From an uncultured Planctomycetia bacterium (GTDB lineage Bacteria; Omnitrophota; Gorgyraeia; 2-02-FULL-51-18): DNA of 64,000 bases. The translations under genes were made by a program, and so were the position numbers. The stretch covers positions 319,620-383,619 of the forward strand of contig CAZSGP010000002.1 in assembly GCA_964606485.1 (NCBI GenBank). Direction: 5' to 3'. Positions 38,883 through 60,000 of this stretch are shown here, piece by piece (positions within the stretch are counted from its first letter, which is position 1; the number at the start of each line of letters is the position of its first letter). Below the pieces are notes generated by a model. That model did no database searches. It worked only from the letters and a program-made list of their open reading frames with translations, and was not told the DNA's origin.

Positions 38883-39866
38883 TTAGTAGCTTGCCAGAAC
38901 CGCGTTGGGGTGATCGCCGGTTAAGTCCATCATGCGCTGAAGGGTTTTTTGCGCGCGGCTGCGAGTGGGCTCCGGAACTTCAATTTTATGCTCCATGTTT
39001 TCGAGCGCGTGCGCGACCCAGCCAAGAGTCGTCATTTTCATAGTCTGACACACAAAATGTTCAGTTGGCGCAATGAAACGTTTATTCGGAAAATCTTTCT
39101 TTAATTTATAAATCATTCCGACTTCGGTGCCAATGATAAACGTGTCCGCTTTGGACTTGGCAATAAACGGCCCGAAACCGCTCGTCGAACACACGCAATC
39201 GGCCAAATCAATGACGTCCGGCGGACACTCCGGGTGCACAATAAAAGGCGCGCCGGGGAACTTTGCTTTCACCGCGCGCACTTCTTCGGCGGTGATGCGA
39301 ATGTGTGTCGTGCAAAAACCTTGCCAGAGAATAATTTCTTTTTCGGGGCAAAACCGCTGAGCATAATGCCCCAAGTTTTTATCAGGGACGAATAAAATTT
39401 GCTTTTCTTTAAGAGACTTCACGACTTGAATCGCATTGGCCGAGGTGCAAGCAATGTCGCTCTCCGCCTTCACTTCGGCAGAGCTATTCACATAACAGAC
39501 CACAGCAGCGTTTGGAAATTCTTTTTTCTTTTCGCGTAAACGCTCAGCCGTCACCATGAGCGCCATGGGACAGTCTGCTTCGCGAACAGGAAGTAAAACC
39601 GTTTTTTCGGGATTTAAAATCTTGGCGCTCTCGGCCATAAAATCCACGCCGCAAAACACAATGGTGTCGTAACCAGTTCCCACCGTCGCCTTGGAAAGCG
39701 CGAGCGAGTCGCCAAGAATATCCGCTACCTCCTGCACTTCATAATTTTGATAATTATGGGCAACGATATAAGCATTGCGCTCCTTTTTTAAGCGCAACAC
39801 TTTCTCGCGGAGCTTCTTTTTATACTCCTTTGAGGTTTCAAGCGTTTCGAATTCTGGTTCGATCAT
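38883..39866 (-). CDS. nadA: Quinolinate synthase
   Basis: Start taken at MIEPEF (ATG about 39866, with GGAGGT 8 nt upstream). NadA motifs VAHNYQ plus Fe-S cysteines. The 71 upstream codons of the listed ORF derive from a repeat element. Confidence 0.85.
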   Translation of the reverse strand: MIEPEFETLETSKEYKKKLREKVLRLKKERNAYIVAHNYQNYEVQEVADILGDSLALSKATVGTGYDTIVFCGVDFMAESAKILNPEKTVLLPVREADCPMALMVTAERLREKKKEFPNAAVVCYVNSSAEVKAESDIACTSANAIQVVKSLKEKQILFVPDKNLGHYAQRFCPEKEIILWQGFCTTHIRITAEEVRAVKAKFPGAPFIVHPECPPDVIDLADCVCSTSGFGPFIAKSKADTFIIGTEVGMIYKLKKDFPNKRFIAPTEHFVCQTMKMTTLGWVAHALENMEHKIEVPEPTRSRAQKTLQRMMDLTGDHPNAVLASY

Positions 39867-39870
39867 AAAT

Positions 39871-39985
39871 CTACCTCCCCGGCACTTCGTGTCCGCCCCT
39901 CCTTGGTAGGGAGGGGAAATCCTACTCGTCTTTCCTCCCCTTACCAAGGGGAGGTGTCCACCGCAGTGGACGGAGGGGTCTAAAC
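39871..39985. repeat. 110-nt multi-hairpin intercistronic repeat element, copy A (suf region)
   Basis: Contains the palindromes CCCCTCCTTGGTAGGGAGGGG, TCCCCTTACCAAGGGGAGG and GTCCACCGCAGTGGAC. Near-identical to copies at 40565 and 43797. It lies directly upstream of the nadA start. Confidence 0.8.
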
Positions 39986-40549
39986 TTGGACAACTTCCTT
40001 CACTTCCGGAATAGATGCTTTGAGCCGATTCTCTACACCCATTTTGAGCGTCATAATCGAACTCGGACACGAACTGCACGAGCCCTGTAAATGAAGCGTC
40101 ACAATCCCGTCATTATACCCGTAAAACGTAATATCTCCCCCATCCATGGCCACGGCAGGTCTGATTTCACTATCCAGAATCTGACGGATTTTTTGTTCGA
40201 TGGCACTGTTCCCTTCAACCGGCACACCTTCCGTCACCTGCGGCTTGTGTCCAAAGAGCTCTTTGTCACTTGCAAGCGCAGACTTAATGGTTTCGGTAAC
40301 ATTCCCCACGATGGTTTGCCACTGAGCAGCGGGAGCCTTCGTGACCGTGATAAAATCGCGGCCGACCATTACCCCTAGCACCGAATCAATCGCAAAAAGC
40401 TGCTCGGGTAAATAATTTCCGCGCGCTTTTTCCTTGTCCGGAAAATTAAATGAGCCGGATTCAAAAAAAACTTTGTTCACATTAAATTTCAGCGTATGCG
40501 GATTCGGTGTGACTTCCGCAGTAATTTCGATTTTAGTATTCGTATCCAT
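39980..40549 (-). CDS. NifU/Nfu-type Fe-S cluster scaffold (Nfu_N + NifU C-terminal CxxC domain)
   Basis: Start taken at MDTNTKIEITAEVTPNPHTLKF (Nfu_N). C-terminal GSCSSCPSS motif. The upstream 60 codons of the ORF are repeat-derived. Confidence 0.8.
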   Translation of the reverse strand: MDTNTKIEITAEVTPNPHTLKFNVNKVFFESGSFNFPDKEKARGNYLPEQLFAIDSVLGVMVGRDFITVTKAPAAQWQTIVGNVTETIKSALASDKELFGHKPQVTEGVPVEGNSAIEQKIRQILDSEIRPAVAMDGGDITFYGYNDGIVTLHLQGSCSSCPSSIMTLKMGVENRLKASIPEVKEVVQV

Positions 40550-40564
40550 AGCTATCTCCTTTTT

Positions 40565-40686
40565 ACCTCCCCGGCACGCCTTCGGCGTGTCCACTCCTCC
40601 TTGGTAAGGAGGGGAAATCTTTCTCATTTTTCCTCCCCTTACCAAAGGGGAGGTGGTCGCCCTCAGGCGACCGGAGGGGTTAAATC
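40565..40686. repeat. 110-nt multi-hairpin intercistronic repeat element, copy B
   Basis: Same architecture as copy A. The third hairpin is GGTCGCCCTCAGGCGACC in place of GTCCACCGCAGTGGAC. It overlaps the 3' end of sufU and supplies the RBS of nfu. Confidence 0.8.
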
Positions 40687-41121
40687 TTTTAGCGCGTCCC
40701 CCAGTGCCTGCCAGGCCAGCGTCGCGCACTTGACGCGCACCGGATAATTCTTAACCCCTTCAAAAATTTTTAGCTTTCCGAGAGCCGCTTTTTCCTCAGA
40801 TGAAAGCGTTTCGTCCGTCAGCATCCGGATAAAATTCGCATCCATCGTCTTTGCTTCTTTGATGCTTTTTCCTTCCAGCGCTTCAGTCATTAAAGACGCG
40901 CTAGACTTTGAAATGGCGCATCCAGAACCTTCAAACTTTACGGCCTTTATTTTACCGCTTTCATCTGTCAACAAATAGACATGATAGTCATCACCGCAGA
41001 GAGGATTTACCCCATGCGAGTAAGCGCTTGGATTTTCCAGTTTGCCGAAATTGCGCGGCGAACGGTTGTGATCCAAGATCACTTCCTGATAGAGATCGTT
41101 TAATTTAAACTCGAACATCAA
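40663..41121 (-). CDS. sufU: SufU/IscU-like Fe-S scaffold/sulfurtransferase
   Basis: 152 aa with conserved cysteines (LCGDDYHV, GSGCAISKSSAS). Confidence 0.8.
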   Translation of the reverse strand: MMFEFKLNDLYQEVILDHNRSPRNFGKLENPSAYSHGVNPLCGDDYHVYLLTDESGKIKAVKFEGSGCAISKSSASLMTEALEGKSIKEAKTMDANFIRMLTDETLSSEEKAALGKLKIFEGVKNYPVRVKCATLAWQALGDALKDLTPPVA

Positions 41122-42353
41122 TGCCCCAACACTTCCTGAACTTTTAAAATTCCTTCGATCAATTTATCAATTTCCTGAGTGGTGTTGTAAAACGCGAAAC
41201 TTGCGCGTGCGGTGGCGGGCACTCCAAAACGTCTCATCGCCGGTTGCGCGCAGTGATGCCCCGCTCGAATGGCAATGCCACACTGGTCAAGCACGGTGCC
41301 GATATCGTGCGGGTGAATACCCTCCATCGTAAACGACACGAGGCTCGCCTTCTCGCGTGCCGTTCCAATAATTTTAAGCCCCTTGATTTCCGCTAATTTT
41401 TTTGTCGCGTAAACGAGCAGCTCTTTTTCATAAGCTTCAATCGCCTCAAAACCAACGCTTTGAAGATAGTCGATGGCGGCCCCCAAGCCCACGATTTCGG
41501 CAATGGCTGGCGTGCCTGCTTCAAATTTGGCTGGGATTTTTGCGTACGTCGTTTTTTCAAATGTCACACTTTCAATCATGTCGCCGCCGGATTGGTACGG
41601 GTCCATCATTTCTAAAACTTTGCGCTTACCGTACAACACGCCTATGCCGGTCGGCCCGTAAACTTTGTGCCCCGAGAAACAATAAAAATCACAATCGAGC
41701 GCTTGCACATCCACTTTCATGTGGGGCGTACTCTGCGCGCCATCAATCAAGACCAAGGCCCCGGCGTGATGGGCGATTTTTACGATTTCTTCGACAGGAT
41801 TAATCGTCCCAATCGCATTCGACACGTGATTGACTGCCACAAAATAAGTGCGCGTCGTCAGCATCTTTTCAAATGCGTCCAAATCAAGCTCTCCGCGGTC
41901 GTTAACCGGGATCACTTTTAAAACGAGTTCTTTTTCTTCGCAAAGCCTCTGCCAGGGAACGATATTCGAGTGATGTTCGAGCGTCGAAATAATAATTTCA
42001 TCGCCCTTTTTCAAAAGTTTTCGTCCGTAACCTGCCGCGACCAAATTAATCGCCTCGGTCGCGCCGCGCACAAAAATAATTTCTTCTTTTTCTTTGGCAT
42101 TCAAAAAATCGCGGCATTTCACGCGCACCGCTTCGCATTCTTCGGTGGACGTCTGCGAAAAGGTATACACGCCGCGGTGCACCGTGGCGTATTCCTTTTT
42201 ATAGAACTCCGACAGACGCTCAATCACCAAAAAAGGCTTCTGTGTCGTCGCAGCATTATCAAGATAGACAAGTGGAAGTCCATTCATCCGGCTGCGAAGC
42301 ATCGGAAATTCCTGGCGAATTTTATGAGCGTCAAGCATGGGCATTGAGAGCAT
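41118..42353 (-). CDS. sufS: Cysteine desulfurase SufS
   Basis: 411 aa. PLP-lysine motif FSGHKVYGPTGIGVLYGK and active-site Cys HHCAQP. Confidence 0.9.
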   Translation of the reverse strand: MLSMPMLDAHKIRQEFPMLRSRMNGLPLVYLDNAATTQKPFLVIERLSEFYKKEYATVHRGVYTFSQTSTEECEAVRVKCRDFLNAKEKEEIIFVRGATEAINLVAAGYGRKLLKKGDEIIISTLEHHSNIVPWQRLCEEKELVLKVIPVNDRGELDLDAFEKMLTTRTYFVAVNHVSNAIGTINPVEEIVKIAHHAGALVLIDGAQSTPHMKVDVQALDCDFYCFSGHKVYGPTGIGVLYGKRKVLEMMDPYQSGGDMIESVTFEKTTYAKIPAKFEAGTPAIAEIVGLGAAIDYLQSVGFEAIEAYEKELLVYATKKLAEIKGLKIIGTAREKASLVSFTMEGIHPHDIGTVLDQCGIAIRAGHHCAQPAMRRFGVPATARASFAFYNTTQEIDKLIEGILKVQEVLGH

Positions 42354-43074
42354 CTCGCATCCCCTCTCTGACTAGCGCTTCAAGCTGGCTACGCACAGTT
42401 CGGTCCTTAATTTGCTGTAAAATTTCATCCGCAAACCCATACACCAGCAAGCTTTTGGCTTGGTCTTCGCTCAAACCCCGACTCTTCAAATAAAAAAGCT
42501 CGCGCTCATCGATCTGCCCCACGGTTGCGCCGTGCGCGCAGGAGACATCGTCGTTTTCAATTTGAAGCTCAGGCTTTGCATCCGCATGCGCTCCGCTTGA
42601 TAACAGTAAATTTTTATTGAGCTGCTTCGAATCAGACTTCACCGCGTCTTTGTGCACATGGACAAGGCTTTCAAAATCCGACCGAGACTCATCGAGTAAA
42701 ATATTTTTAAAAATTTGACGGCTTGTGCAGCGGGGCGTCGAGTGCTCCACGCGCGCTTTGTGGGATACGCGTGATTTTCCTTTCAAGAGAGACAACCCTT
42801 TTAAATCCGCCTCCGCCCCTTCTCCATTAAACTCGACCACGTGTTCATTTTGAGCGTTCGTCCCACCGCTTGAAAAAGAAACCAGCGTTAGCTTTGCATT
42901 TTTCTCCAAATGAAAATGGTTTAAAAGCGCAATCGATCCATCTTTTTGGATTTGCGTTACCAAAAGCTCAGCATCTTCGCCAATCCAGGCTTCAACCCCT
43001 TCATTCTCGAGAGAGGTTTGAAGCGTTTGGCCTTTAGCGAGTTTGATTTGTTTGTTCATACCCTTTTTTCTCAA
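42331..43074 (-). CDS. sufD: Short SufD-like Fe-S assembly protein
   Basis: 247 aa with a SufD C-terminal beta-helix region ([23 protein letters not shown]). It overlaps the sufC end. Confidence 0.65.
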
Positions 43075-43780
43075 GTTCTAGCGCGAGCGTCTTGTCGCCC
43101 GAACGCACAATTTTCCCGTCAGCCATGATGTGCACAAAATCGGGTTTCACATAGTCGAGCAAGCGCTGATAATGAGTGATCAAAATAATGGCATTGTCCG
43201 CGCGGCGCAGGGCGTTCACGCCACCGGCTACTTCGCGCAGTGCGTCAATGTCGAGGCCCGAATCCGTTTCGTCTAAAATGGCTAAGTCCGGATCGAGCAC
43301 CGCCATTTGTAAAATTTCATTCCGCTTTTTCTCGCCACCTGAAAAACCCTGATTCAGTGAACGTGTTAAAAATATTTCAGGCATATTCACGGTTTTGAGT
43401 TTTTCGCGCACGAGTTCATCAAACTCCAAAGGATCAGCTTCTTTCTGGCCTTTAAATTTGCGCTTGGCGTTGTAGGCCATTCGCAAAAATGAAGCATTGT
43501 TCACACCCGGAATCTCAACCGGGTATTGAAACGCCATGAAAATTCCACTCAGCGCGCGCTCGGTCGGCTCAATTGTGAGAAGACTCTTTCCCTTATAAAG
43601 GATTTCGCCTTCAGTCACCTTGTAATGGGGGTCTCCTGCCAACACTTTCGACAGCGTGCTCTTGCCGGAACCGTTCGGTCCCATAATGGCGTGCACCTGC
43701 CCAGGTTTCACCTCAAGCGAAAAGCCTTTTAAAATTTCTTTGCCGTTAATCTCAGCGTGTAAATTTTTAATGCTTAGCAT
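43034..43780 (-). CDS. sufC: Fe-S cluster assembly ATPase SufC
   Basis: Start taken at [13 protein letters not shown]. Walker [10 protein letters not shown] and ABC signature FSGGEKKR. Confidence 0.9.
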
Positions 43781-43796
43781 AATTCTCCTTTTCAAA

Positions 43797-43906
43797 CCAC
43801 CTCCCCGGCGCTTCGCGTCCACCCCTCCTTGGTAAGGAGGGGAAATCGCTAGCCCTTTCCTCCCCTTACCAAGGGGAGGTGTCCACCGCAGTGGACGGAG
43901 GGGTCA
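43797..43906. repeat. 110-nt multi-hairpin intercistronic repeat element, copy C
   Basis: Near-identical to copy A. It lies between the sufB stop and the sufC start and provides AAAAGGAG before the sufC ATG. Confidence 0.8.
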
Positions 43907-45349
43907 GCCTGTTGCACCTTCCAACTTAAGTCCTAGTAATTGCGTTGCCTCGACCGCGAATTCGCCGGGAAGTTCACGAAACACGTCCTTGCAAAATCCA
44001 TTGATGATGGCGCTCATCGCGTCTTCTGAGGAGATTCCCCGTTGTTGAAAATAAAAAAGTTGGTCGTCGCTCACCTTCGATGTCGTGGCTTCGTGTTCCA
44101 CCTGCGACTGAGGCTGGCTCGAACGAATCACTGGAAACGTGTTGGCTGTGCACTTAGAGCCAACGAGCAGCGAATCGCACTGCGTAAAATTGCGCGCACC
44201 GGTTGCGGATTTTTTAATATCCACCAAACCACGATACGTGTTTTGTCCATGTCCCGCAGAAATTCCCTTCGAAATAATCGTGCTCTTCGTATTTTTTCCA
44301 ATGTGAATCATTTTCGTTCCGGTATCCGCCTGCTGAAAATGATTGGCGAGGGCCACCGAGTAAAATTCACCCACGGAATTGTCTCCGGCCAAAATGCAGC
44401 TAGGGTATTTCCAGGTAATCGCGGAACCCGTCTCGACTTGAGTCCAGGAAATCTTAGAATTGAATCCGGCACACTTGCCACGCTTTGTCACAAAATTAAA
44501 AATGCCGCCTTTTCCGGTTTTAGGATCCCCCGCGTACCAGTTTTGAACCGTGGAGTATTTGATTTCAGAATTTTCAAGCGCCACAAGCTCTACAATCGCC
44601 GCATGGAGTTGATTGGAATCAAATTTCGGGGCGGTGCAACCTTCTAAATAAGAAACGGTGCTATTGTCCTCGCAAATAATCAGCGTTCGCTCAAATTGTC
44701 CTGAGCCTTCAGTGTTGATACGGAAATAGCTCGAAAGTTCCATGGGACATTTGGTGTTTTTAGGAATATAAACAAATGATCCGTCCGAAAAAACAGCGGA
44801 GTTCAAGGCCGCAAAAAAATTATCGGTGTACGGAACCACCGAGCCCATGTATTTTTTCACAAGGTCCGGGTACTTTTCGACCGCCTCGGAGAATGGGCAA
44901 AACACCACGCCCACTTCGAGCAATTTCTTTTTATAACTCGTCGCGACCGATACGCTGTCAAAAATGGCGTCCACTGCAACACCGGCGAGCTTTTTTTGCT
45001 CCATCAGCGGAATACCAAGCTTTTCGAAGGTTTTCTTGAGCTCCGGATCCACCTCATCCATGCTTTTTAATTTTTCGGGAGAGGGTTTCGGCGCCGAATA
45101 ATAAATAATATTTTGGTAATCAATCGGATCGTATGTGGCATGTGCCCAATGAGGCTCTTTCATTGTCTGCCAATGCCGGAATGCTTTTAAACGAAACTCT
45201 AGCATCCACTCCGGCTCATTTTTTTTCTTGGAAATGAGACGCACCGTGTCCTCGGTGAGGCCTTTTGGAATAACATCCGCCCCAATATCGGTTTTGAAAC
45301 CGTATTTGTATTCTTGGCTCGTTATTTTTTGAATGGCCTTTTGGCTCAT
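43904..45349 (-). CDS. sufB: Fe-S cluster assembly protein SufB
   Basis: 481 aa with a typical SufB sequence ([18 protein letters not shown]...). Confidence 0.9.
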
Positions 45350-45357
45350 AGTTTCCT

Positions 45358-45416
45358 GTCATCCCCGCGTAGGCGGGGATCGAATCGTTAGATTCCCGCT
45401 TTCGCGGGAATGACAC
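45358..45416. repeat. Double-hairpin REP-like element, family 1 (GTCATCCCCGCGTAGGCGGGGATC ... ATTCCCGCTTTCGCGGGAATGAC), copy 1
   Basis: Two GC-rich hairpins. It translates to the REP-derived peptide IPAYAGMTG / VIPAKAGI and forms the last codons of the rrf2 ORF. Confidence 0.8.
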
Positions 45417-45879
45417 TACCTTCCTGTCTTGCGCTCAACAATGAAAATTGCACTTCCGCCTGGCTTTTAGTTAAGGTTTCAAGCGTAATCGAATCAAAAA
45501 AATGATCCAGCAAATCTTTGGTGCGCTTCCACACGGGCTTCGCCCCGCACATGCAAATATGATTGCAAACAATGTCTTCTCTCACATGCGGATCGCAGAA
45601 CACTTCAAAGGTGCTGCCTTCGAGCGCATCAATAATTTGCCGAACGGTAATTTCCGACGGCGCTTTCGCGAGCACGTATCCGCCTTGATTACCGGTTTGA
45701 GCCGTCACGAGCTTTGCATTTCGAAGCGCTTGTAAAATTTTCTCGATGTAAGCCACCGGATAATTTTCTTTTTTGGCGAGTTCTTTAATCGTCATCAGCG
45801 TCGCCTGTCCTTCGCGCGCCAAAGCGATCATGCAAACAAGGCCGTATTCGGTTTTAGTGGTGTATCTCATGCTCGCCAT
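45388..45879 (-). CDS. Rrf2-family transcriptional regulator (IscR-like)
   Basis: Start taken at MASMRYTTKTEYGLVCM. Rrf2 wHTH with IscR-type cysteines (CDPHVREDIVCNHICMC). The C-terminal about 10 aa are encoded by the REP element. Confidence 0.8.
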   Translation of the reverse strand: MASMRYTTKTEYGLVCMIALAREGQATLMTIKELAKKENYPVAYIEKILQALRNAKLVTAQTGNQGGYVLAKAPSEITVRQIIDALEGSTFEVFCDPHVREDIVCNHICMCGAKPVWKRTKDLLDHFFDSITLETLTKSQAEVQFSLLSARQEGSVIPAKAGI

Positions 45880-46255
45880 TTCCTTGGTTATTTTTATTCG
45901 TGGACGAATCCGCCGACGCTCCAGTGGCGGAAGAAGAAACCGTAAAAGACGTCCCACAACCACAAGTACCCGTCGCGTTGGGATTCACAAATTTAAATCC
46001 ACCTGATAATAAATCGCTCGAATAATCGACATGCATTCCCCCCAAATAAAGCAGGCTCTTAATGTCAGACACCACTTTGAGTCCGTCCACATCGAAGGCG
46101 CGGTCATTTTCGCCCATTTGATTGTCGAATTTGACGTCATAGCTAAAGCCCGAACATCCCCCGCCCTTGACGCCCACCCGAAGGAAAACGTCTGGCTTTT
46201 GGTCTGCAATCAGCTTCCTTACATGTTGCTTGGCTGCATCTGTTAGTTGGATCAT
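45854..46255 (-). CDS. IscA/SufA/ErpA-type Fe-S cluster insertion protein
   Basis: Start at MIQLTDAAKQHV. HesB motifs with the C-terminal cysteines GTCGCGTSF. Five upstream codons of the listed ORF come from REP copy 2. Confidence 0.85.
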   Translation of the reverse strand: MIQLTDAAKQHVRKLIADQKPDVFLRVGVKGGGCSGFSYDVKFDNQMGENDRAFDVDGLKVVSDIKSLLYLGGMHVDYSSDLLSGGFKFVNPNATGTCGCGTSFTVSSSATGASADSSTNKNNQGNGEHEIHH

Positions 46256-46264
46256 GCTTGCCTC

Positions 46265-46326
46265 CGTCATTCCCGCGAAAGCGGGAATCTAATCGCTTTG
46301 ATCCCCGCCTACGCGGGGATGACAAG
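46265..46326. repeat. Double-hairpin REP-like element, family 1, copy 2 (inverted relative to copy 1)
   Basis: CGTCATTCCCGCGAAAGCGGGAATC..GATCCCCGCCTACGCGGGGATGAC. It translates to RFRGNDG in a spurious ORF. Confidence 0.8.
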
Positions 46327-48069: not shown

Positions 48070-51000
48070 CTACGCAGATGCTCCTATTGAGGCAAGCGAC
48101 GTCTTTGCAAACTCCACAAACTTCGCCCAGTCGAGCACGGCGAGCACTTTTAAGGAGAGTTTTTTGTAAAATTGTGTGTCGATAGTGGTAACTTTTTTAA
48201 TGGCCTGAAATGCCGCAGGCAAAAGCTCCGAGAACGAGTCGCTTCTTAAATTATTCCACATTTGCTTTAAAGTGTCGGTGACCGACGGCAATCGAGCAGC
48301 CGCCACAGCAAAAGTCGCACTCGCCGCAAATGGAATGGCGGATTTGCCATCACCAAAATTTTCAAAGACCACAGCACCTGCTCCATCAGCTTGGGCGAGT
48401 TTCAAGGCCGCGTCGCTGAGCTTGGAAAAATAGACCATTTCGTACTGATCGCGAGCCAGTCCCTGCAAAGCGTCGGAAGCGCCGTATTCTAAAAAGCGCT
48501 CCCCCGCTAGAGTTCCAAACTGCAACAGCACATTGCTTCCGGCCACAGCGCGAACGGATTTTATTTTAGAAGCGTAAAGCGAAAGCTCTTCGACACTCAA
48601 TTCTTTTTCGGTCACAATTCTTAAAACCACGGTGCGGTCGTTGGAGATGCCTGATTTCTGATAGAGCCTCGTGATCAAGCGCGTCACGCGTTCATTTTCG
48701 GAGTTCAGCTCTAACACTTCCGGTGACGCCATTTGAATCTGTTGACCCACGACGCGCGGTAAGACGGCAACGCTTTCGGAATTGAGTTTGTGTGCTTTTT
48801 CGCGCGTGGCTTCATCAAACGTTAACTTGCCGATGAAAACACGAGCCTCTTCCCCGACGTCACCTCGCCGGTAAAGCTCAACGGCAAGCCCTGCGTCTAC
48901 GAATTTAACTAAAGTAATTCCCGTTAAAAAGGAAAAGGGTCGAGACAATTCATCCTTCGAAAATTGCGCACCAACTTTGTCCGCCAAGCGCGCTAAGAGC
49001 AGAGTGTCAGACGCTTCGAAAGCGCTAGGCATGGATTTGATTTCGTTGGATGGAAGGCGTGCGCCGTAAATTTCTTTAAATGTCGGCACTAATTCTTCGA
49101 TATCCGGCACCTGATAAACCTTAAACGCGGTCTCGCCATTTAACGCGCCTTTATTTTTAAATTTGAGCGTGAATAATTCGGACTGCTGAGGATCTCCCCA
49201 GGCTTTCGGATAATACGGCCCGACATGATTGCCCCACTGACCCATTACAGCAAACGCTCCAGGCTTAAGTTCGCGGCCCAGCTTTTCCCGAAGAGCCGAT
49301 TGAAAACTTTCTCTCTTACCCACACCCAAACCGCTGGGTTGTGTGTAGTAAAAATAAAAAACATCAACCTGACTCCAAGACACCGCCAGTGCGTCCGTGT
49401 TTCCCAAAAATGTAAAATTGTCTCTGGGAACGAGTTGCCAAAATTTGGACTGAATCAGCACGTCCCGGGCGGCCCTCGAAATATCCGCGTCCTTTTCAAC
49501 CGCCGTAATTTTCATCCCGTACAGATAAGCCGCCACGGCAGAAACGCGGAAATCTCCGGAACCCATTTCAAAAAACTGCTTTCCTTCAAGCGACCCTTTT
49601 TCTTTTAATAATTTTTCAAACACTTCAAAAATACTCTTCAGATCCGTTGGTTTGTAGAAACTCGTGTCCGCTACCGCACCTTCCGCATCTTTGAATGCAT
49701 CACCCTGAGTTTCGTAAAACTTCTGAAGCTCTTGGAGTCTCGCCATTCGGCCCTGTTTGCCAAGGGCCAATCGCGCACCAACGCCCACCAGTTGTTGGTT
49801 GGGAGCTAAATCTGGAGCAATCTCTTTAAGAGGCGCTGTCGCTGCGAACATGGGTCGAGGGGCGAGCAGCTCTTGCATCAATTGCTCGGGAGCGGCTCCT
49901 GTCAAAATAAGACGCTCCCCCTTGGCCTCAAACGGCACGTAGGACAGCCAACCCTTTTTGATCGAGAACTCCACCTGATCTTTGGGAAGCGCTTTTAATT
50001 GAACTGTACCGAATGAAGTTCGATTTTTATTGTTGTTGAACGTATGAATCGGAACCAGAATCTCCGCTTTGGCATCTTTCGGATGGTCACGAAGAAAATC
50101 GTTCACTTGTCGGCTTCGACGATCTGTAAGATATTGATTTAGATTAAAATTCTCAACGGCCAGTGAAAGAGCCCCCGACTTCTCGTCAACTGCTAGAATT
50201 CCTAGACGCAAATCACGCACCACTTCTCTAAAATTAGCCCAAACAGACGCCTGTCCTGCTAACGGAATCCAGTAAAGTCGATATTTTTTTGCGCCAAGCG
50301 CGGCTTTGTTTAATTGGTAAAATGATCTCAAATCGGAAAGACGGGCGCCTTCCATCTCCACTCTTCTTTCTTTTGCGGGTTCTTCGGTCACCTTCTCATC
50401 AACAACCGTTGTGGGCTTTTTCTCGCTGAGTATCGCTTCCGCTGAAATACCCTCCTTAAGACTCCGATCAACTTCCCGGGGAGTTAACTGGCCAACTTGA
50501 GCATCTATTTGTTTCAAGATAGCGTCTGAACGAGTCTTTTTAATTTTTAATTCGGCGATTTCATTCGCCTTCTGCTTGATTTTTTCTTTTTCTGTGTTGG
50601 TTAATGCGAAAGCATCTTGGAGAATTTCAAGATCGCCATCGCGATTAACTTGAGTCTCTGCTCCATTCCACTGCTCAGCCAGCTCTTGTGTCATCGTTTC
50701 AAAAACCTCGCCCGTCATCGTGCCTTTAAGTTTTTCATCGCCCTCCAGCGTTAGATCTTGAGGAATGGGCGCATTCAGATTTTTGGCTACGAGCCGCTTG
50801 AGACGAAAAGCTTCGCGAGGCTCGATGTAATCGTGTTCCTTTAGGATCTCTGTCGTTATTTTTTCGATGTCTTTTTCACTAACCTCCTTAACGGCAGATG
50901 AATCGGCGGCGATACGACCGAGCGTGTTCAGATTGTCCAGCGTATTTGCGACGGAACCTTTGTTAACTTGCTCGGTAGCTTCGCTGGCTAAAGTGGCTAT

Positions 51001-54000
51001 AGGATCAAGCTCGCTAGTCAGGGAATTAAAATGTTTTTTTGCCGCGTCGTCGGCTAATGATGCAACCGCGTCGAACTTTTGGCTGACGGAGTTTTTAAGC
51101 TGTCGATCGACAACGGGCACAAATTCTTCTTTTAAGTCTTCAGGGAAGTATTTCCGGTAAACATCTTCAGGAGTAATTGAGTCGACGTATTTTTTGGCTA
51201 GGTCATAAGCGGCCTTCGCTTTTTTGGTGCGTTCAGAACCGGTTATTCGCCCGACCCAACTATCCTTAATTTCCGCCAAGGGAAGCAGAGCGACTTCATT
51301 GTTTTGGGCGACGGCGTCCACTGCCAAGTCATAAATTTCCTTATCACTAGCCCAGTGGACAGGCTCGTTGTCCTTTTCTGCTAAAAAGTCGGCCAAACGA
51401 AGAATTTCAAATCCACTGAGAGAATATTTTTTCCCATAGGGATATGCGGCTTCCAAAAACGAAATTAGTCTTGTTGAACTATTATTCATTCTACCAAGCG
51501 CTTGTATAGCGCTTTCACTTACGATTTTATATTTATCATTTAATAGCTCAATGAGCGCAAGAGCAATATTTGGTGCTACAGGGCCGATCCTGCCAAGAGC
51601 AAAAGCAGCTTCTAAACGAACAGATGGATCCTCGTCTTTTAACGCTTCAATCAGAGCAGGGATGACTTCTTTGGCGGCGGGGCCAATCTGTCCGAGGGTG
51701 ATGGCAGCATTTCTGCGGACAACCCGATCCTTGTCTTTTAATGCTTCAATCAGTGCAGGGATGGGTTCTTCGGCAGTGGGATCAATCTTACCGAGAGCAA
51801 CAATAGCTTGACTGTTACCCAGATCTTCGTCCTTTGACGCTTCAACTAGAGCGGGGATGGCTTCTTGGGCGGCGGGGCCGATTTTGCCGAGAGACTCGGC
51901 GGCGTAGTGACGGACAAGCCAATCTTTGTCTTTTAATGCTTCGATCAACGCTGGAACAACTTCTCTGGCGGCGGGGCCAATCTGTCCGAGGGCGGTGGCA
52001 GCATTTCTGCGGACAGTCGGATCTTTGTCTTTTGATGCTTCGATCAACGCTGGAATGACTTCTTTGGTAGCGGCACCTATCCTGCCGAGAGTTAGGACAT
52101 CACCGTGGCGCATAACCCCGCTCTCGTCTTTCAATCTTTCAAGGAGCGTAGGGATGGCTTCTTTGGCGGCGGGGCCGATTTTGCCGAGAGCAATGTATGC
52201 ATAACCCTCTTCATCTTTCAATGCTTCGATCAACGCTGGAATGACTTCTTTGGTAGCAGGTCCGATCTCTCCGAGAGCAATGGCGGCGCTTCTACGTAGA
52301 TGCAGATTTTTGTCTTTCAATGCTTCAATCAGAGCAGGGATGGCTTCTTGGGCAGAGGGCCCCATCTCCGCAAGGGTCCGCGCAGAACGAACGCGAATAT
52401 TTCCATCTTCATTTTTTAAATCTTCTATTAATTTTTTGATTTCATCGGATCCGGCCATCCGCGCGCCAACTTGGTTAGCTGAAATTTTTTCCAAATCACT
52501 CTGAATAGGAAACCGGACCGCATGCATCCAATAGGAAGAATCGCCTGACGGGCGAGCGGCTATATATTCAGCGAGCGCCTCTTTAAAGGAAGGCGCAATA
52601 ACTCTATGCGTCTCTTTTTTGGAGTCTACAGTAATTTCTTTTTGTTTTTTCACGACGATCACTTTTTTAAAATCGTTACCCATCACCCTGCTGGCCATAT
52701 CCAGCATCGTTTCTGGTACAAAAAATACGTCAATGGCAGAAGCGGAGACTGAGCCCTCCCTCTCCACTTCGGTCTTACCCAAGCGAACGTAAGGAAGCTT
52801 CGCATCCTTAAAAATTTGCATAACAATGATGGTGTGATTTAATCTTTCGCGCACATCCTCGTCGGTGGAATCATTTTCCACCACTACCGGTAACATTGAA
52901 AAAGGGGATCGGTCTCCGAGCGCCCGATCCAGATTTTGGTCTACGTCCTTCGATGCAGGCATAGCCACTCCATACACGCGGTCGTCATAGATCAAATCTC
53001 CACCTGCGTCCGGATAATCCAAATCCCGCGAAAATGCGAAGATCGTATCCGGTCTCTTTTCCATTATCGCCCGCCTCGATAAAATCCCATGCGTCATAAT
53101 ACTTTTCATATGTTTTTCGCGCGCTTTGTCAATTGATACATCAGCCATCCGCGCGCCGAAACCTTCGCTTTGGTCCACCCAATCCATACTAGCTCGAAAT
53201 ATCTCACCGATTTCAGGATCGTTTTTTAATTGGCTGATGACGCTCCGAGCTTTCTTAGAAACATCCGACAGGCTTGTCCGGGCGATATTGTTCAGGAAAA
53301 TGTAATTGTTCATTTGATAGTTGGTAGAAGTGTTTTTAGCTGGGAATTTGATCAATAAATGGGCATATTCCATGTCTTTTTCATCAAAAATATCGGGACT
53401 TGCGATTGATAGCGCCGGGAGAAGGTCCGACAATATTTCCTTTTCAAGGTAACTTAGATTGGCGGGCGCCTTTCTTTCGGATTGAATTCGCGCCAAGATC
53501 CGATAGGCCGCTTTTTTGTCACGGGAAAGCTGAAAATATTCATCAATTGCCTGTCTTGCAACAATCCGCTCCTTGTCTGTGCTGGCTAAATTGAAATAGG
53601 TTTCAATGCAGGTTGAATCGAGCGGATTGACGACACGCGCAACCGACTCTTGGAGTGCTGTCGTGACCGGCTCGCCCACAGCCGGCTTGCTGCTGTCTGA
53701 CAACCAAAAATAAATCTGCGCGGCGAGCAAAGGAACGGGTCCCATTAAAATGAAAACCTTCACAGCTGTAAGCGCATAAAGCCCCGTAAATAGAAGTGTT
53801 GTTCTTAGGAACAGTGTGAAGGCAATATCCTCAAGGCGGGTCTCTTTGCTGGTCGCCATCCCTGCCTGTCCGGCAGACAAACGCGCGCCGGCTAGAACTC
53901 TATTTAATTCATGCGGAAATTGTATGGGTGCATGCAAATGAACCGTCTCGTTTGTCGGTTCGATGTGAATAGTGTTTGGGGCTATAACCGAGAATTTAAC

Positions 54001-57000
54001 CCCCTCTCTAAAAATTCCTTTTTCAGCCCAATCTTGAAGCGCTTTGCTTACAAGCTCGGTGTCTTTAGTAGGATCTTTAAGGAGACTGAGATAGATTTTG
54101 TCTGATCCGAGTTGGATATACGGGCCCTTTAATGAGTCTTCGCCTTTGGTGATTAAATTAGCATTTTGAGTGGGCGTGCCGGAAAGGCGCGCGCCGGAAT
54201 TGAGCGCCGACAAATCCACATTCACCATGCGGTTTATAGCCGCTCCGACCGGGCGCAGTTTGGCTTCGATGACCACGGGCCTTGGGTAATCTTCGGAGCC
54301 GCTCGCTGGAAGCCACATGAGATCAATTTGGCCATCTAATTCAAATCCGTCCGGGACACCGATTGCTTTAAGCCTTTGGGACAAATAACGAACCTCGGCC
54401 TTAACCTGTTCATCCATCTGCTTGGAAAAACCGTCTTTTTTGCCTTCCGAAATCCCTGCCGCTTCATAAAGCGGCGCGTAAATAGTGGGCCAATAATCTT
54501 TCTGGGTCTGAGCTTCTCCGGTAATAAATGTAAAATACGACGAGCTCCCGACACGCGAATGCCAACCGCTCAAATTTTTATCCCCGTCCCTTTCTTTGAG
54601 CAGCACCACGTCGCCGCCGACCGTAAATTGATAGCGCGTCCTTAGCTCCAGCGCTTTACCGTGATAACGCAAAACGGGTGACAATGTCTCAGCCACTCCG
54701 TAATTCTCTCCTATAAACAATTCCCAAAATTCCCGCAATCGGCTAGCCGCATCTTCTCTACTAGCGTCAATAACCAATTGCGTGATTTCTTCAGACGGCT
54801 TGTCTAGGACTGGCACCTTACGGAAAGAAAAATGAGCCTTTACGCGCTGCAATTGATCATCAGACGCGATCGAGCGGTAATCGGCAAACGTGATCACAAA
54901 CGCTCCTTCCTGATTTTTTTCAATCATAAATATGCCATTTCCCATGCTCATCGAATTCGCTTTAACCACGATTGGCAGAGCGCGCGCGCCGCTCATAATT
55001 TCATCGAGCAGTTGGCGCGGTGTTCTGCTTCCTCCAGACGGAATCAGCTCAAGAACAGGCTGTTCCTCAAGAAGGCGGATGTGAAAGGGCTCCGGACCCT
55101 GCCATGATCCATTTACAAAGCGCTTTCCAAAAACCACGTATTCCGGTTGAATCATCGGACCCCCATCCAACAGGCGACGCATTTCGTATTTTCTCGAAAA
55201 CGTCTGAATTAGATTGTCGAATGGCACTTCACTAGCCGACAAGCGGGCACCCGATGATAATGCATCGGTCGGCCTCTGAACTAAAATCTGTCCCGGCTCG
55301 GTTAACCAATGCGTACTAGAGGACTTATTGGAGTCGGTGAAATAAGGCAACGCTAGACTCATATTCTTCGAAATAATCCCAGCGAGTGTTTTCACCTCTG
55401 AGACACTGTTTAGCAATACCTCTTTTTTAAATGTTCTATGAGAAAGAAGATGGGAAATTTTACCGATGCGAGGCTGATTGACGCCGGCCAACCATATTTT
55501 TAATTTTTGGTCCGGCTCTACCAGTATGGTGTAATAACTATCCCTGTAATTAGACTGGACGTAAATTAAGGTCCCTGGTATTTCATCGAATAAATTTAGA
55601 AATTCAACCTCATCCGGCTTCCGGGACGTGTCAAACTTAGGCGCCGCCTCGCTCGAAGAACCTGGAGCCCATGGTCCCGCAGACATCTCGGGATTATGAA
55701 ATTCATAAAACACTTGCCTTAGATATAACTGGCTCATAGCGACAAGCGGTACAGCAGCCGCCAGAACATCAATCCCTACGATGATAGCCGCAAACAATGG
55801 CATACCAAAATAAATCAATCCCAATGAGGTTATTCCGCCAAAAATAATACCCGCACCCCAATAGGCCAAGCGATTTTCATCTATTGAAATACCCAGAAGA
55901 ACATGGGTGGGTATTTCAGCCATCCTCGCCCCGTCCGGCAGGCGGTCTTTAGGAATCTCGTTACGATTTAGAAGATTTAGCTCTCTCTGGACTGCCTGAA
56001 CCGCTTCTTCCAAAAATTTTTTAAATTGATCTCCTGAATAATCTTTCTGTATTGCCTCTACCATTTTCTTCGACTCTTGGGCTAACGCTTTGGCCTTAGC
56101 CCAGTCCTTTGCTTCTTTCCTCACTGCATTGCGGTCCCCTTGAATTTTTTCATAAGCTCGATCCAACTTGGATGAAAAACGGCTATCCTCAATCAGCTCG
56201 GCTTCGGCGATATCTCCCTTAATCGCCGCAAATATTTGAAGCGCCATCCACATTTTTAAAACGACGCGGCCCCGAATGAATTGCCCCGGCCTCCAGGAAA
56301 CTAGGTATGCGTCCGCCATTTTTTCGGCTGTGACCAAGTCCATGGCTTCGATCCCGCGCTTGTTCAGCGCTCTGTACAAATTCAGAAAAACAATCTTGTG
56401 TTTCAAATCCGGTATGGATTCGACACTTTCAACAAGTTCCTTCGACGTTTTTTCATCCATCTCGGTCTTTATGGACTTTAGATTTTCGATCAACGATTCT
56501 AATTTCAAGACGTTCTCTTGGCTTAATTCATCAAAAAGCACCTGTTTTAATTTTGGGTTGGCGCTACTCCACTTTAAAACCGTTTTCATGGTCTCGGGTT
56601 CAACGTTTTCAAGCAGCGCCGCCGGCCCCCCACGCTGGCGCACCGTTTTCAAATCACCCGATTCATTGTAGGCAATCGCGGTGACAAAATTGGGGACGGT
56701 TTTTGAATCAAATAGACCTTTAAAATAGCGGTAGTACACCACCTCGTTCTCTTCCAAAACTTTTTGGTAGTTCTGAGCGACCGGACTCGTCAAGACAGTC
56801 TTTAAGGGGCTTGGCTCGGCGGGCGCCATCGCCTGGGAAGCCTCGGGCGACTGAGAAGACTCGACGGATTCTTGGTAATGGATGGAGGCTTGGGTCAATA
56901 AATGCGAGGTAGAAATTGGTAAAAGCGCTAAAAATAAACCGATCGTGAAAGGAAGCATTCGTCTAAGCAATTGATTCTGAGAGTTTGCCGCAATGATAAT

Positions 57001-60000
57001 TCCCAAATAAACGAGCGCTGTGCAAAGCACTCCGGGAATTCCTAAAGCCGTGTACGCTGAAAGCGCTCCGACAAGCATGCTCGCGGAGGCAGCGCTAAAG
57101 TTTGCCGGGCTAAGAGATGCGAATCGTGCACCGGCGGCCTTCAGAAAATTTATTCTTTTAGCCATTTCTGCCGACCGGCCAAAATCTGCCGCCAATCGCG
57201 GCGCAGTCACTGAGAGCTCCGGATCGTTTTTAAAATATTCTGAAATGTATGAATAAATATCGGCAATAGCATTTCTAATTTTTTGCTGTACTTGCTCTGG
57301 GGTGGCTTCGGCTGCATCCCGGCTCCACAGCTGCGCGACGGCACGAAGGCTTTTCTCATCAACAAGGTCCGTTTGTCCGCTTGCAACTTTCAGCGCCCCC
57401 CTAAACTTCAGCAGAAGGGCGTATTCCTCAATAACCTTCTGGCTTTTTGGAAGTCTTTCCAAAACCTCAAAAGAGCTCGAAAAAGAACGCAACTCAGGAT
57501 GCCGGCTTTTTTCATGCCAAACCAGAAAATGAATGGCGCGGATCACGGCCAATTTTATATTCAATTCTTTTGCGCCCGAAATGACCGGGGTTTGAACACT
57601 GTCTAATTCCTCCAAAAGTGCCTTCTGATGATCACTTCGAGAACTTCCATAGAGATTGTTAGCAACAATCCGTTGAATCAGCACCTGGTCATACTGGTCC
57701 CTGCTACCCGCCACAAAATAAATATCCCGAAACGTAGTCGGCGTGTTGCTGGGAACCTCTATATCGGCATCAATGGCTGGTTCGTATCTTTTTTCAAAAG
57801 GCGCCCATATTTCTTTTGCGCCACCCAGCTCTTCCAGAGATAGAAAATATTTATCCCCCAAACTCTCTTTCATTCCTTCATCCACATCCAGATCCGGCAG
57901 CTTGTATTCATCCACCCACTGCTCAAGCTGAATTTTAATCGCTTCGTGTATTTTTTTTGCATTTTCTTTATTTGCGGCGCTGACCGGAATAACCTTAAAA
58001 TCGATGTCCGAAAAATAAACCAACTCGTCTTTCCGGGCCAAGCTTCCGTAGCTAGCCACCACAAAATCATTCAAATCGACGCCGATCTTTTGCGACACGG
58101 CCTCCGCAGCTAAACGAACGGTTTGATTGAGCCAGCTCGTCATTGAAGTCGAAGCTTTTATCTGCCGCTCCCTATTTATTTCAGGAGCACTCGCTTCAAT
58201 CTCCACATCCCGTTTTAAATCTTTGTAAACTTGAACATGTTGCGCCATTGGATCTTCCGCCAACCGCGCCCCGCTCACGGGCATAAACTTCTCCAAAGCA
58301 GACTTATAAACAAACTCCGGCATCTCACCATCAATCTTGAGCAGTACGATTTCACCACTGGCCACCGCCGCCTTAAAATCGGTTTCATTTGAAATTTTCC
58401 ACCCCATGTTTTGCTCGATGCCAGGGATGAGAACATTTTTTGCTACGTGCCTTCCTTTTCCGGGAGGAATTTTAGAAAGCGCCTCTTTTGTGGGGAAAAT
58501 TCTAAAATGATATTTTTTTCCAAATCTAGCCAGCACATCAAATTCCATCAAGTCTGAATCTGTCTCCACCGTCGCCAGTGTAATTACAGCGCCCTGATCA
58601 AAGCTTTGGCCCTGATGCAATGCGCCGTTCACACCGCTAATCTTAATTTTCCATTGTCCTTCTTCAAAAAAAATCTCCGCATGCTTTCTGGAGATTGTTG
58701 AGCCTGGTATTGATATCTCATTCTCCGGATTCCGCCCAACGAAGTATCTTTTTTCAGGTGTAAGCGTTATAGGCGATCCGCTTGTCGTTGTGACTACTAA
58801 ATTTTTTCCGTCCAAGTGATAACCAAACTTGCCGTCCCCCAAAAACATCTCTTGGGTGGTAGGCTCGGTGGAAGTAGCGGCGGGCGCGCCAAATCGTTTC
58901 CGAAACTCCGCAATCACCGGTATCCTGTTGAGATATTTTTCAGAAACATCGACGTAATTAGTATTGGAGGGGTGCGATTGGCCTGCGTATTCTCTCGCTT
59001 GTTTTCGATACTCATATGCGGGAGTCGTAAAGGACCCACCCTTGACCCATTTTGCCCTTAAACCTAAAACTCCAATTTTACCGGTGGTTTCAATGCTACC
59101 AATCCACGATCTTCCATCTTTATCCGTCATAAAAATAAAACGTAGATTTTTATTGAGCGATCTAAAAACACGCGCGGTGACCATTCCATAAAGATTTGTT
59201 TGCATCGTAGTCTGATCTTTTTTGGGATCGAAACCCTCAAAATTAGGAGCATCCCCCGGGTCCGTAAACCGAACATCTTCGGGCCTCGGTTTTTTCGTAG
59301 AGTCCACCATCCCGAAACGGTCCATCACCAAAGAACCTTCCTTTAACCGCTGCGCGTTCCTGTCGATGGCCATTTTATAAGTCCCCTGTAAATCATAATT
59401 ATTCTGATAATCCCGTGTCGTTCCCGCAAAAATCAACTCTTGAACACGCTTATCTCTTATCTCAACAATTTTCTTTTGCTCGGAAATTTTGTTGAGCGCT
59501 ACTTGAATTTCAAAAGGAAGTGTAATGCTGTCTTCTCCAAAACCTTTGTCATACCAATCAATCTCTCCAAGCCCATCCAAGTAAACACTAGGCAAGTATC
59601 TCCACAATGCTTGGGAATTGCTCAAATAATAAGTTCTCGCCACGTATCTGTTTCCCGCTTTTACATAGGCAATCGCAGCCAGTCGTTTATCTTTCATTTC
59701 AAATAAATTCGATGCAAACAAAAGCACCTGCCCGTCCACATTAACCCGATGCTTGGGAATCATCCCTTCGCGTCTTAGCAAGTCCGTGGTCAAAAATTCA
59801 CCCTTAAAGGACCGTCCGTGAATATCCGTTTTAGCTAAAATCGCAAGCCCTTCTTCAGCGCCAATTTCGACAGGAGCATCGGCCTGGAGCGAAATTTCCT
59901 CATTAACCCCTGCCGGAGAAGCCAAAGAAACGTTAAACCTATCGATCATTTTTTCAACGATATTTTTGATGGCTTCCTTGGCTTGCGCAGGAATGGAGTT

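Follow-up and report, generated by a model that had tools for sequence, protein, structure and literature searches.

Correia/NEMIS elements of Neisseria and ERIC/IRU elements of enterobacteria measure about 100-150 nt, have inverted termini and lie between genes, where they are transcribed and form long hairpins that can alter mRNA processing or stability. Both are catalogued as stem-loop families, and the same catalogue holds BoxC, a 56-bp repeat with ~32 copies in E. coli and of unknown function (PMC2267715). A REPIN is a doublet of repetitive extragenic palindromes (REPs), i.e. two inverted palindromic units with their flanks around a variable spacer, and a small single gene is found bracketed by the repeats (PMC3337134). 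REPs located <16 nt from a stop codon lower upstream translation via ribosome stalling, and REPs at 3' ends stabilise the mRNA (PMC12306157). Here we describe three co-oriented copies (A, B and C) of a hairpin repeat, each about 110 nt long, on the minus (coding) strand of a 64-kb stretch of contig CAZSGP010000002.1 (positions 319,620 to 383,619; hereafter the window), where they occupy three junctions of an iron-sulfur (Fe-S) operon. The copies, which entered the three junctions after this lineage had split from its known relatives, are likely to be non-autonomous mobile DNA elements of the REP-doublet type, similar to REPINs and to bacterial interspersed mosaic elements (BIMEs), and are possibly mobilised by a DUF559 endonuclease; effects of the element on RNA are proposed by analogy.

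Three hairpin doublets in the suf operon

According to NCBIfam assignments, the minus strand carries, in this order, an Rrf2 regulator gene, sufB, copy C, sufC, sufD, sufS, sufU, copy B, nfu, copy A and nadA, with an iscA-like gene upstream; the operon that received the insertions is iscA-rrf2-sufBCDSU-nfu-nadA. The three copies, with their covariance-model scores, and the over-long open reading frames (ORFs) that they produce are listed here.

39873-39979, minus strand: copy A, 107 nt, nfu/nadA junction (nfu stop TAG 39980-39982, nadA ATG 39866-39864), 129 bits; in mRNA order ACCCCTCC, G, hairpin 1 (hp1) GTCCAC-TGCG-GTGGAC, hp2 CCTCCCCTT-GGT-AAGGGGAGG, spacer, hp3 CCCCTCCCTA-CCAA-GGAGGGG, hp4 GGACAC-GAAG-TGCC, GGGGAGGT
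40565-40680, minus strand: copy B, 116 nt, sufU/nfu junction, 112 bits; hp1 differs yet is paired (GGTCGCC-TGAG-GGCGACC) and hp4 is longer
43799-43904, minus strand: copy C, 106 nt, sufB/sufC junction, directly 3' of the native sufB stop TGA (43906-43904) and with the sufC ATG at 43780, 18 nt past the repeat end, 122 bits
38883-40079: over-long ORF
39980-40729: over-long ORF
43034-43822: over-long ORF

The covariance model (R1), built from the three copies and run unfiltered across the whole window, returned exactly three matches (112-129 bits, E 1e-22 to 1e-25). The same three copies and no others in the window were found by a repeat search, by a MAFFT alignment and by a search for a 21-nt core, for which 0 chance matches are expected (100 shuffles of the window). 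Over ungapped columns A and C are 89% identical, A and B 82%, and B and C 81%, with a 51-nt identical stretch common to A and C. On the coding strand all copies run from ACCCCTCC to GGGGAGGT and share the layout ACCCCTCC, G, hp1, CA, hp2 (CCTCCCCTT-GGT-AAGGGGAGG), a 17-nt variable spacer, hp3 (CCCCTCCTTA-CCAA-GGAGGGG), hp4 and GGGGAGGT; hp1 is the same in A and C, and hp4 of copy C carries a compensatory CGC/GCG change compared to copy A. Comparison with other loci reveals that each copy is a doublet of two inverted units; in a unit, a small variable hairpin lies between a polypyrimidine terminus of 7 nt (CCCCTCC) and a main hairpin of 21 nt (CCTCCCCTT-loop-AAGGGGAGG). Strict complementarity between the two termini of a copy is confined to CCTCC/GGAGG (5 bp).

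The initial annotation had placed the copies to within a few nt of these positions, the GC-rich hairpins it quoted are present in them, and the flanking genes (nadA, nfu, sufU, sufS, sufD, sufC, sufB) agree with its nadA-nfu-suf operon. Its artefactual ORF extensions with SPPYQGG peptides are likewise real, as all three copies encode the peptide ISPPYQGG in the frame of the downstream gene. The unit and doublet architecture, a second repeat family in the suf operon and the DUF559 association were not noticed there. Within hp3 (window 39896-39916 and 43822-43842), CCUCCUUA is paired with AAGGAGG on the mRNA strand. The former is identical to the anti-Shine-Dalgarno-bearing 3' end of 16S rRNA and the latter is a consensus Shine-Dalgarno (SD) sequence, so that every transcript copy has internal SD-like and anti-SD-like sequences.

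The copies fold stably, with predicted RNA folding energies of -58 to -70 kcal/mol (z = -4.3 to -6.0 compared to shuffles). The element is near-symmetric and its opposite strand folds equally well, as a DNA palindrome should. RNAalifold closes the whole element by a CCUCC/GGAGG helix and finds five pairs with double-sided changes among the window copies, three of them in hp1 and one in hp4. Across loci, 18 of 24 distinct linkers of 9-20 nt form a perfect stem over the full linker (shuffled mean 1.9, maximum 6; 1000 shuffles). Judged from these linkers, the small hairpin between terminus and main hairpin is kept in its pairing and free in its sequence. Rfam yielded no match to the whole window at gathering score and chance-level matches only to the region at E<=10. 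No minus-strand intrinsic terminator (GC-rich hairpin plus U tract) lies within the copies, the counts equalling the shuffled expectation, and since neither promoter nor terminator signals in the copies exceed that expectation, a promoter or terminator function of the element was rejected.

To distinguish insertion from ancestry we turned to related operons. The source organism is Omnitrophota-like: named Nfu homologues belong to Candidatus Omnitrophica, the best non-self match being 74% identical. The exact SufS is found on one public contig only, a 3.9-kb Logan contig that ends inside copies C and A; reads of the source genome are deposited under SRR12487046. Three relatives (loci L005/6, L007/8 and L009/10), whose Nfu is 70-73% identical, share the suf gene order, with junctions that range from overlapping to ~50 nt, and none of their six loci gives an R1 match at the orthologous suf junctions. 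The native C-termini are kept in SufB (...EGATG before the stop) and Nfu (...EVVQV before the stop), so that copy C begins 0 nt and copy A 1 nt past a native stop codon. In contrast, the sufU frame enters copy B for 18 nt and terminates at TGA 40665-40663 within the hp1 loop; the variable SufU tail is lost, the present end being ...ALKD-LTPPVA and stop. The sequence 3' of copy B (AAAAAGGAGATAGCT-ATG) resembles the old sufU tail and SD region of relative L005, and once copy B and one TAA are taken out of the sequence, sufU regains an ORF with its end 2 nt upstream of the nfu ATG. All three copies hence start 0-1 nt after the upstream stop codon or contain the stop. The earlier proposal that the repeat targets intergenic sites fits A and C, which lie between stop and start, and fails for B, which sits inside the 3' end of sufU and replaces its tail. 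As read from these alignments, the copies are lineage-specific insertions which postdate the split from known relatives and not ancestral regulators. Relative L007 has an unrelated hairpin repeat in its own sufU-nfu gap.

The copy boundaries also bear on how the element may move. A miniature inverted-repeat transposable element (MITE) derived from a DDE-transposase insertion sequence (IS) would be moved in trans by cut-and-paste and would duplicate a 3-bp target of the stop-codon-like type T-R-R. The size of ~110 nt, the imperfect inverted repeats formed by the termini ACCCCTCC and GGGGAGGT, and flanks that read TAGA/TAGA (A), TAA/TAA (B) and TGA/TGG (C), with boundaries chosen after the fact and with A and C abutting stop codons, would suit such an origin. 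However, no consistent target-site duplication is seen in related doublets, other members conserve the 'A' and 'T' adjoining the termini as element sequence, which means that the apparent duplication may partly belong to the element itself, and no IS or transposase with matching ends occurs in ~0.85 Mb of related loci. We thus consider a DDE-type MITE very unlikely.

Shine-Dalgarno sites and expected effects on the transcript

The repeats had been credited with supplying the ribosome binding sites of the three downstream genes. The SD sites are as follows.

39873-39878, minus strand: nadA SD GGAGGU, formed by the 3' terminus of copy A and spaced 6 nt from the ATG; in the closing helix its predicted partner is the 5' terminus CCUCC
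40556-40561, minus strand: nfu SD AAGGAG, outside copy B, 6 nt before the ATG, P(unpaired) 0.80
43785-43790, minus strand: sufC SD AAGGAG, outside copy C, 4 nt before the ATG, P(unpaired) 0.71

Copies B and C end 15 and 18 nt upstream of the ATG, and the SD there is non-repeat sequence, so that the claim stands for nadA and falls for nfu and sufC, which use a separate AAGGAG. The nfu and sufC SDs are mostly unpaired (0.7-0.8) with or without the element. For the nadA SD, P(unpaired) is 0.12 in the free mRNA and 0.47 when 12-15 nt past the nfu stop are held single-stranded, as a model of a terminating ribosome. SD sequestration in all copies was accordingly rejected, since it holds for copy A only. 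A family-wide donation of SD or start codon was rejected as well, with start codons following 9 of 144 purine termini compared to 10.7% at random positions. Since start codons are not enriched past the purine terminus and the SDs of B and C lie outside the repeat, the donation of the nadA SD looks opportunistic.

These data also allow us to weigh the possibility of a cis-regulatory RNA dedicated to the Fe-S operon, e.g. a structure which binds a protein or metabolite and would set the sufB : sufCDSU : nfu : nadA stoichiometry or answer iron or oxidative stress; such an RNA would be selected and not mobile. All three copies are in sense orientation, compensatory changes maintain pairing, the terminus of copy A is the nadA SD, and hairpin repeats of both families (the second is described below) concentrate in the suf cluster 38883-46323, where they occupy 5 of 9 junctions while the rest of the window has them at 0-1 of ~30 (Fisher p = 2e-4 to 1e-3), all of which would be in line with regulation. 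However, the element is absent from the same junctions in the three related operons, the same units occur in unrelated contexts (DUF559 flanks, inside cas operons), the near-symmetric element folds equally well on both strands, no Rfam family covers it, and the truncated SufU tail at copy B looks like an insertion accident. An operon-specific regulatory function is therefore unlikely.

For a mobile doublet that landed in an existing operon, we would expect co-transcription and folding into a very stable multi-helix structure from the stop codon onward. Like E. coli REPs <16 nt from a stop, this structure would hinder terminating ribosomes and 3'-5' exonucleases, and as a consequence expression of the segments sufB, sufCDSU, nfu and nadA would be uncoupled. 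In the case of nadA only, the 3' terminus of the element serves as SD, and its sequestration in the closing helix would render nadA translation dependent on ribosomes finishing nfu. Given its start right at the upstream stop codon, the element probably has an influence on translation and on the stability of the mRNA, by analogy with the E. coli REPs. For this genome, the repeats account for the three mis-extended ORFs, for the rewritten tail of SufU and for breaks in the assembly, and they lead us to expect that an essential Fe-S operon is expressed unevenly along its length.

The wider hairpin family and its DUF559 neighbours

Searches with parts of the element place it in a larger family. 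The two-hairpin core gives only three partial matches in the genome collection, from which the source genome is absent, and these lie in unrelated metagenome-assembled genomes (MAGs); hp2 alone is found at 8 loci of viral and at least 120 of metagenomic origin. Members commonly read (T)AACCCC[T/A]CC, linker, hairpin, linker, GG[A/T]GGGGTT(A) and frequently form doublets. Core doublets with the window copies' own termini occur at L053, L031, L089 and L067 (R1, 50-56 bits), and full four-hairpin doublets at L140 and L141 (R1, 36-37 bits). Family hosts comprise Omnitrophota-like bacteria, Nitrospirota, Calditrichia, Bacteroidota, Proteobacteria and viral contigs. By blastn, curated plasmids and phages show no match to the element, and a search of 5.8 billion proteins with its open-frame peptide found no candidate. 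The family is apparently undescribed and, to judge from its distribution, consists of widespread REP-like mobile hairpin elements. Of the alternatives raised at the outset, a BIME/REP-type element or a small MITE, the general class is borne out by the inverted palindromic doublet, its absence from the relatives' junctions and its dispersal over many metagenomes.

To identify recurrent neighbours, ORFs within 2.5 kb of the hairpin were compared all against all for 131 loci fetched through the hairpin. Hereby, one specific family recurs, a DUF559 (Vsr-like) endonuclease at 14 of the 131 loci, which is the sole recurrent nuclease-type neighbour; the remaining clusters are housekeeping genes, and no transposase recurs in this set. 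The protein has 118-140 aa in most loci, matches PF04480 with E ~1e-36, and carries the motif E-[LVI]-D-G-x-x-H in 12 of 14 cases (all those with the motif region, the exceptions being L085 and L123), with E, D, G and H invariant. Among solved structures it comes closest to 3HRL, an 'endonuclease-like protein' of Neisseria that is uncharacterised. The geometry is stereotyped: between the end of a doublet and the DUF559 start codon there are a few to a few tens of nt, and the following unit contains the final codons or the stop codon of the gene.

For the reverse test, one DUF559 protein served as query (>7,800 matches over many phyla), and seven matches on long contigs were picked without inspecting their flanks. 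All seven genes are bracketed by hairpin units, including those in a Gramella jeungdoensis assembly (GCA_023805255.1) and in the complete genome of Spirosomataceae bacterium TFI 002 (LT907983.1). No unit in these 5-20 kb loci lies farther than 255 nt from the DUF559 gene, and full-length doublets lie beside three of the seven genes (R1, 32-37 bits). Two DUF559 modules lie in CRISPR-cas operons.

L143 3001-3408 (Calditrichia MAG): DUF559 and flanking units between csm4 and a RAMP gene (csm4/csm5)
L145 10001-10369 (Spirosomataceae TFI 002): DUF559 and flanking units between cas genes and cas3

In a published screen, DUF559 coding sequences are enriched for overlapping inverted repeats (odds ratio 14; PMC9881135). 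In the library searched we found no paper that ties DUF559 to hairpin repeats; the link appears to be new, while the general kind of element, a REP/BIME/MITE-like intercistronic repeat, is already known.

The neighbour data speak to a further possibility, namely that the copies are classical REPs or REPINs moved by a REP-associated tyrosine transposase (RAYT, of the HUH/Y1 type) encoded elsewhere in the genome, the DUF559 association being incidental. Their anatomy, two inverted palindromic units with flanks and a less conserved spacer, fits the REPIN definition (PMC3337134), and the copies occupy extragenic, transcribed positions. Yet no copy has beside hp2 or hp3 the GTAG or CGTC tag that most REPs carry (PMC3733652). 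Moreover, in the family-level test of the 131 loci no transposase-like family recurs within 2.5 kb of the hairpin and DUF559 does, and the blind-picked loci have their units clustered at the DUF559 genes only. We therefore give a RAYT a small chance of being the mobilising enzyme.

As for the mobile doublets themselves, spread would occur at the DNA level via a structure-recognising nuclease. The only candidate that the data offer is the small DUF559 protein (Vsr-like, PD-(D/E)xK), whose genes are bracketed by units as RAYT genes are by REPINs. The terminus CCCCTCC is nearly complementary to the partner of the hairpin arm CCTCCCC, and the arm to the partner of the terminus, so that cross-pairing yields T:G and C:A mismatches. 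Vsr cuts next to a T:G mismatch, and a partnership with a Vsr-like nuclease would fit the T:G mismatch expected from this cross-pairing. Taken further, the doublets and the ~120-aa DUF559 protein could form a second, hitherto unrecognised REPIN-RAYT-like partnership. Its enzyme would be a PD-(D/E)xK nuclease instead of an HUH transposase, which would recognise hairpin DNA that is folded or mismatched and would copy doublets devoid of genes around the genome, with BoxC and ycjD of E. coli as the instance in a model organism; we offer this as a tentative possibility.

Several points weigh against the mobile-doublet interpretation. REPs and REPINs number tens to hundreds per genome; here three copies are known from 64 kb of the source genome, leaving genome-wide multi-copy status unproven, and the full version bearing hp1 and hp4 is found at high score in this window only. 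The flanks described above hint at a 3-bp duplication of a stop-like triplet, although ambiguously. No DUF559 gene lies in the 64-kb window; the nuclease link rests on family membership, and adjacency is not proof that DUF559 mobilises the repeats. Finally, the SDs modelled as free with or without the element at B and C would limit a downstream translational effect to nadA.

The wider point is that one modular hairpin unit occurs across many phyla and consistently brackets small DUF559 genes. Should DUF559 indeed be the cognate enzyme, REP-like repeats would have had at least two origins, each involving a nuclease unrelated to the other. DUF559 proteins (including E. coli YcjD) and possibly BoxC would then have a function that can be tested in organisms amenable to culture and manipulation (E. 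coli, Gramella, Spirosomataceae), which would provide a function for a long-orphan repeat and for a widespread domain of unknown function.

A second repeat family and comparison with known systems

The window contains a second, unrelated repeat, a GTCAT...ATGAC twin hairpin of ~57 nt.

45358-45414: twin hairpin within the suf operon
46266-46323: twin hairpin within the suf operon
62755-62812: third copy, inside the giant ORF 48070-63630, frame open throughout (...SSPQSLSGDQLDSRLRGNDNK...), both flanks looking coding

The twin-hairpin sequence is ATCCCCGC-GTAG-GCGGGGAT and ATTCCCGC-TTTC-GCGGGAAT. One of the suf-operon copies lies just upstream of the iscA-like gene, and the other, inverted, covers the stop codon of Rrf2, with 8 nt between its end and the sufB ATG. 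The hairpin ATTCCCGC-N4-GCGGGAAT resembles Neisseria dRS3. The repeat was not found in any fetched locus outside the window. The 62755-62812 copy is inserted in frame and preserves the ORF, which is reminiscent of Rickettsia palindromic elements. The giant ORF (48070-63630, minus strand, 5,186 aa) also harbours a tandem array at 51482-52376 with a 99-nt period and six overlapping copies of a 217-nt unit (61-76% identity).

Returning to the ~110-nt doublets, REPINs and BIMEs resemble them in several respects: two inverted palindromic units with flanks and a variable spacer, an extragenic position within operons, a small single gene bracketed by repeats, and a stop-codon proximity that is expected to affect upstream translation and mRNA decay. 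The REP hallmark of an extragenic position within a transcription unit is seen in A and C, between stop and start, while B overlaps the last 18 nt of sufU. Unlike REPINs and BIMEs, the window elements have no GTAG/CGTC tag, and a further small hairpin, which covaries, separates their terminus from the main hairpin; the bracketed gene encodes a DUF559 PD-(D/E)xK endonuclease instead of the HUH/Y1 transposase. Furthermore, the hairpin sequence recurs across phyla, whereas REPIN-RAYT systems are reported to be mostly vertically inherited (RAREFAN).

With the MITEs Correia/NEMIS and ERIC/IRU the elements share a length in the ~100-150 nt range, inverted termini, an intercistronic and transcribed location and long hairpins. 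Those MITEs, however, have long terminal inverted repeats and, in the case of Correia, a clear TA duplication, compared to termini of 7-8 nt, an uncertain duplication and four discrete hairpins here.

Free-standing homing endonuclease genes offer a parallel on the protein side. The DUF559/Vsr clade includes the EDxHD homing endonucleases (I-Bth0305I), so that this fold occurs in a proven family (PMC3424549, PMC9403480). DUF559 modules likewise sit between operon genes, e.g. csm4/csm5 and cas/cas3, but show no intron or intein context. We know of no homing endonuclease that is accompanied by dispersed gene-less hairpin doublets.

The last comparison is with BoxC. Polypyrimidine/polypurine hairpins and a 'terminus - TAA - hairpin' layout are common to both: the BoxC-like layout in E. 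coli reads CCCCTCACCC-TAA-CCCTCTCCCC-AGA-GGGGCGAGGGG, and family members L053 and L031 read AACCCCTCC-TAA-CCTCCCCTT-GGT-AAGGGGAGG, while the window copies have hp1, their small hairpin, where those members have the TAA linker. One E. coli copy is located at ycjD, a DUF559 gene, and directly past it. About 150 nt downstream of ycjD lies CCCCTCGCCCCTCT-GGGG-AGAGGG-TTA-GGGTGAGGGG, a stretch that is a dispersed repeat in all 5,426 complete E. coli genomes, with a median of 17 places per genome, and that fits BoxC. The ycjD-fabI repeat is reportedly BoxC at its original locus (Bergler et al. 1992). R1 finds nothing in the ycjD-fabI region at E<=1, leaving homology to BoxC unproven, so that the link consists of layout and DUF559 neighbourhood only. 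The 3' end of ycjD itself reads ...CACCCTCTCCC-TGA-AAGAGCGAGGGGG. In E. coli K-12 (L146, NC_000913.3 1351200-1351450) this end is seemingly duplicated ~60 nt past the stop, GGAGACGGTGCTGGAGAATATTC... occurring twice. The gene ends as if a hairpin repeat had been inserted and had displaced the original C-terminal codons, as in sufU of the window.

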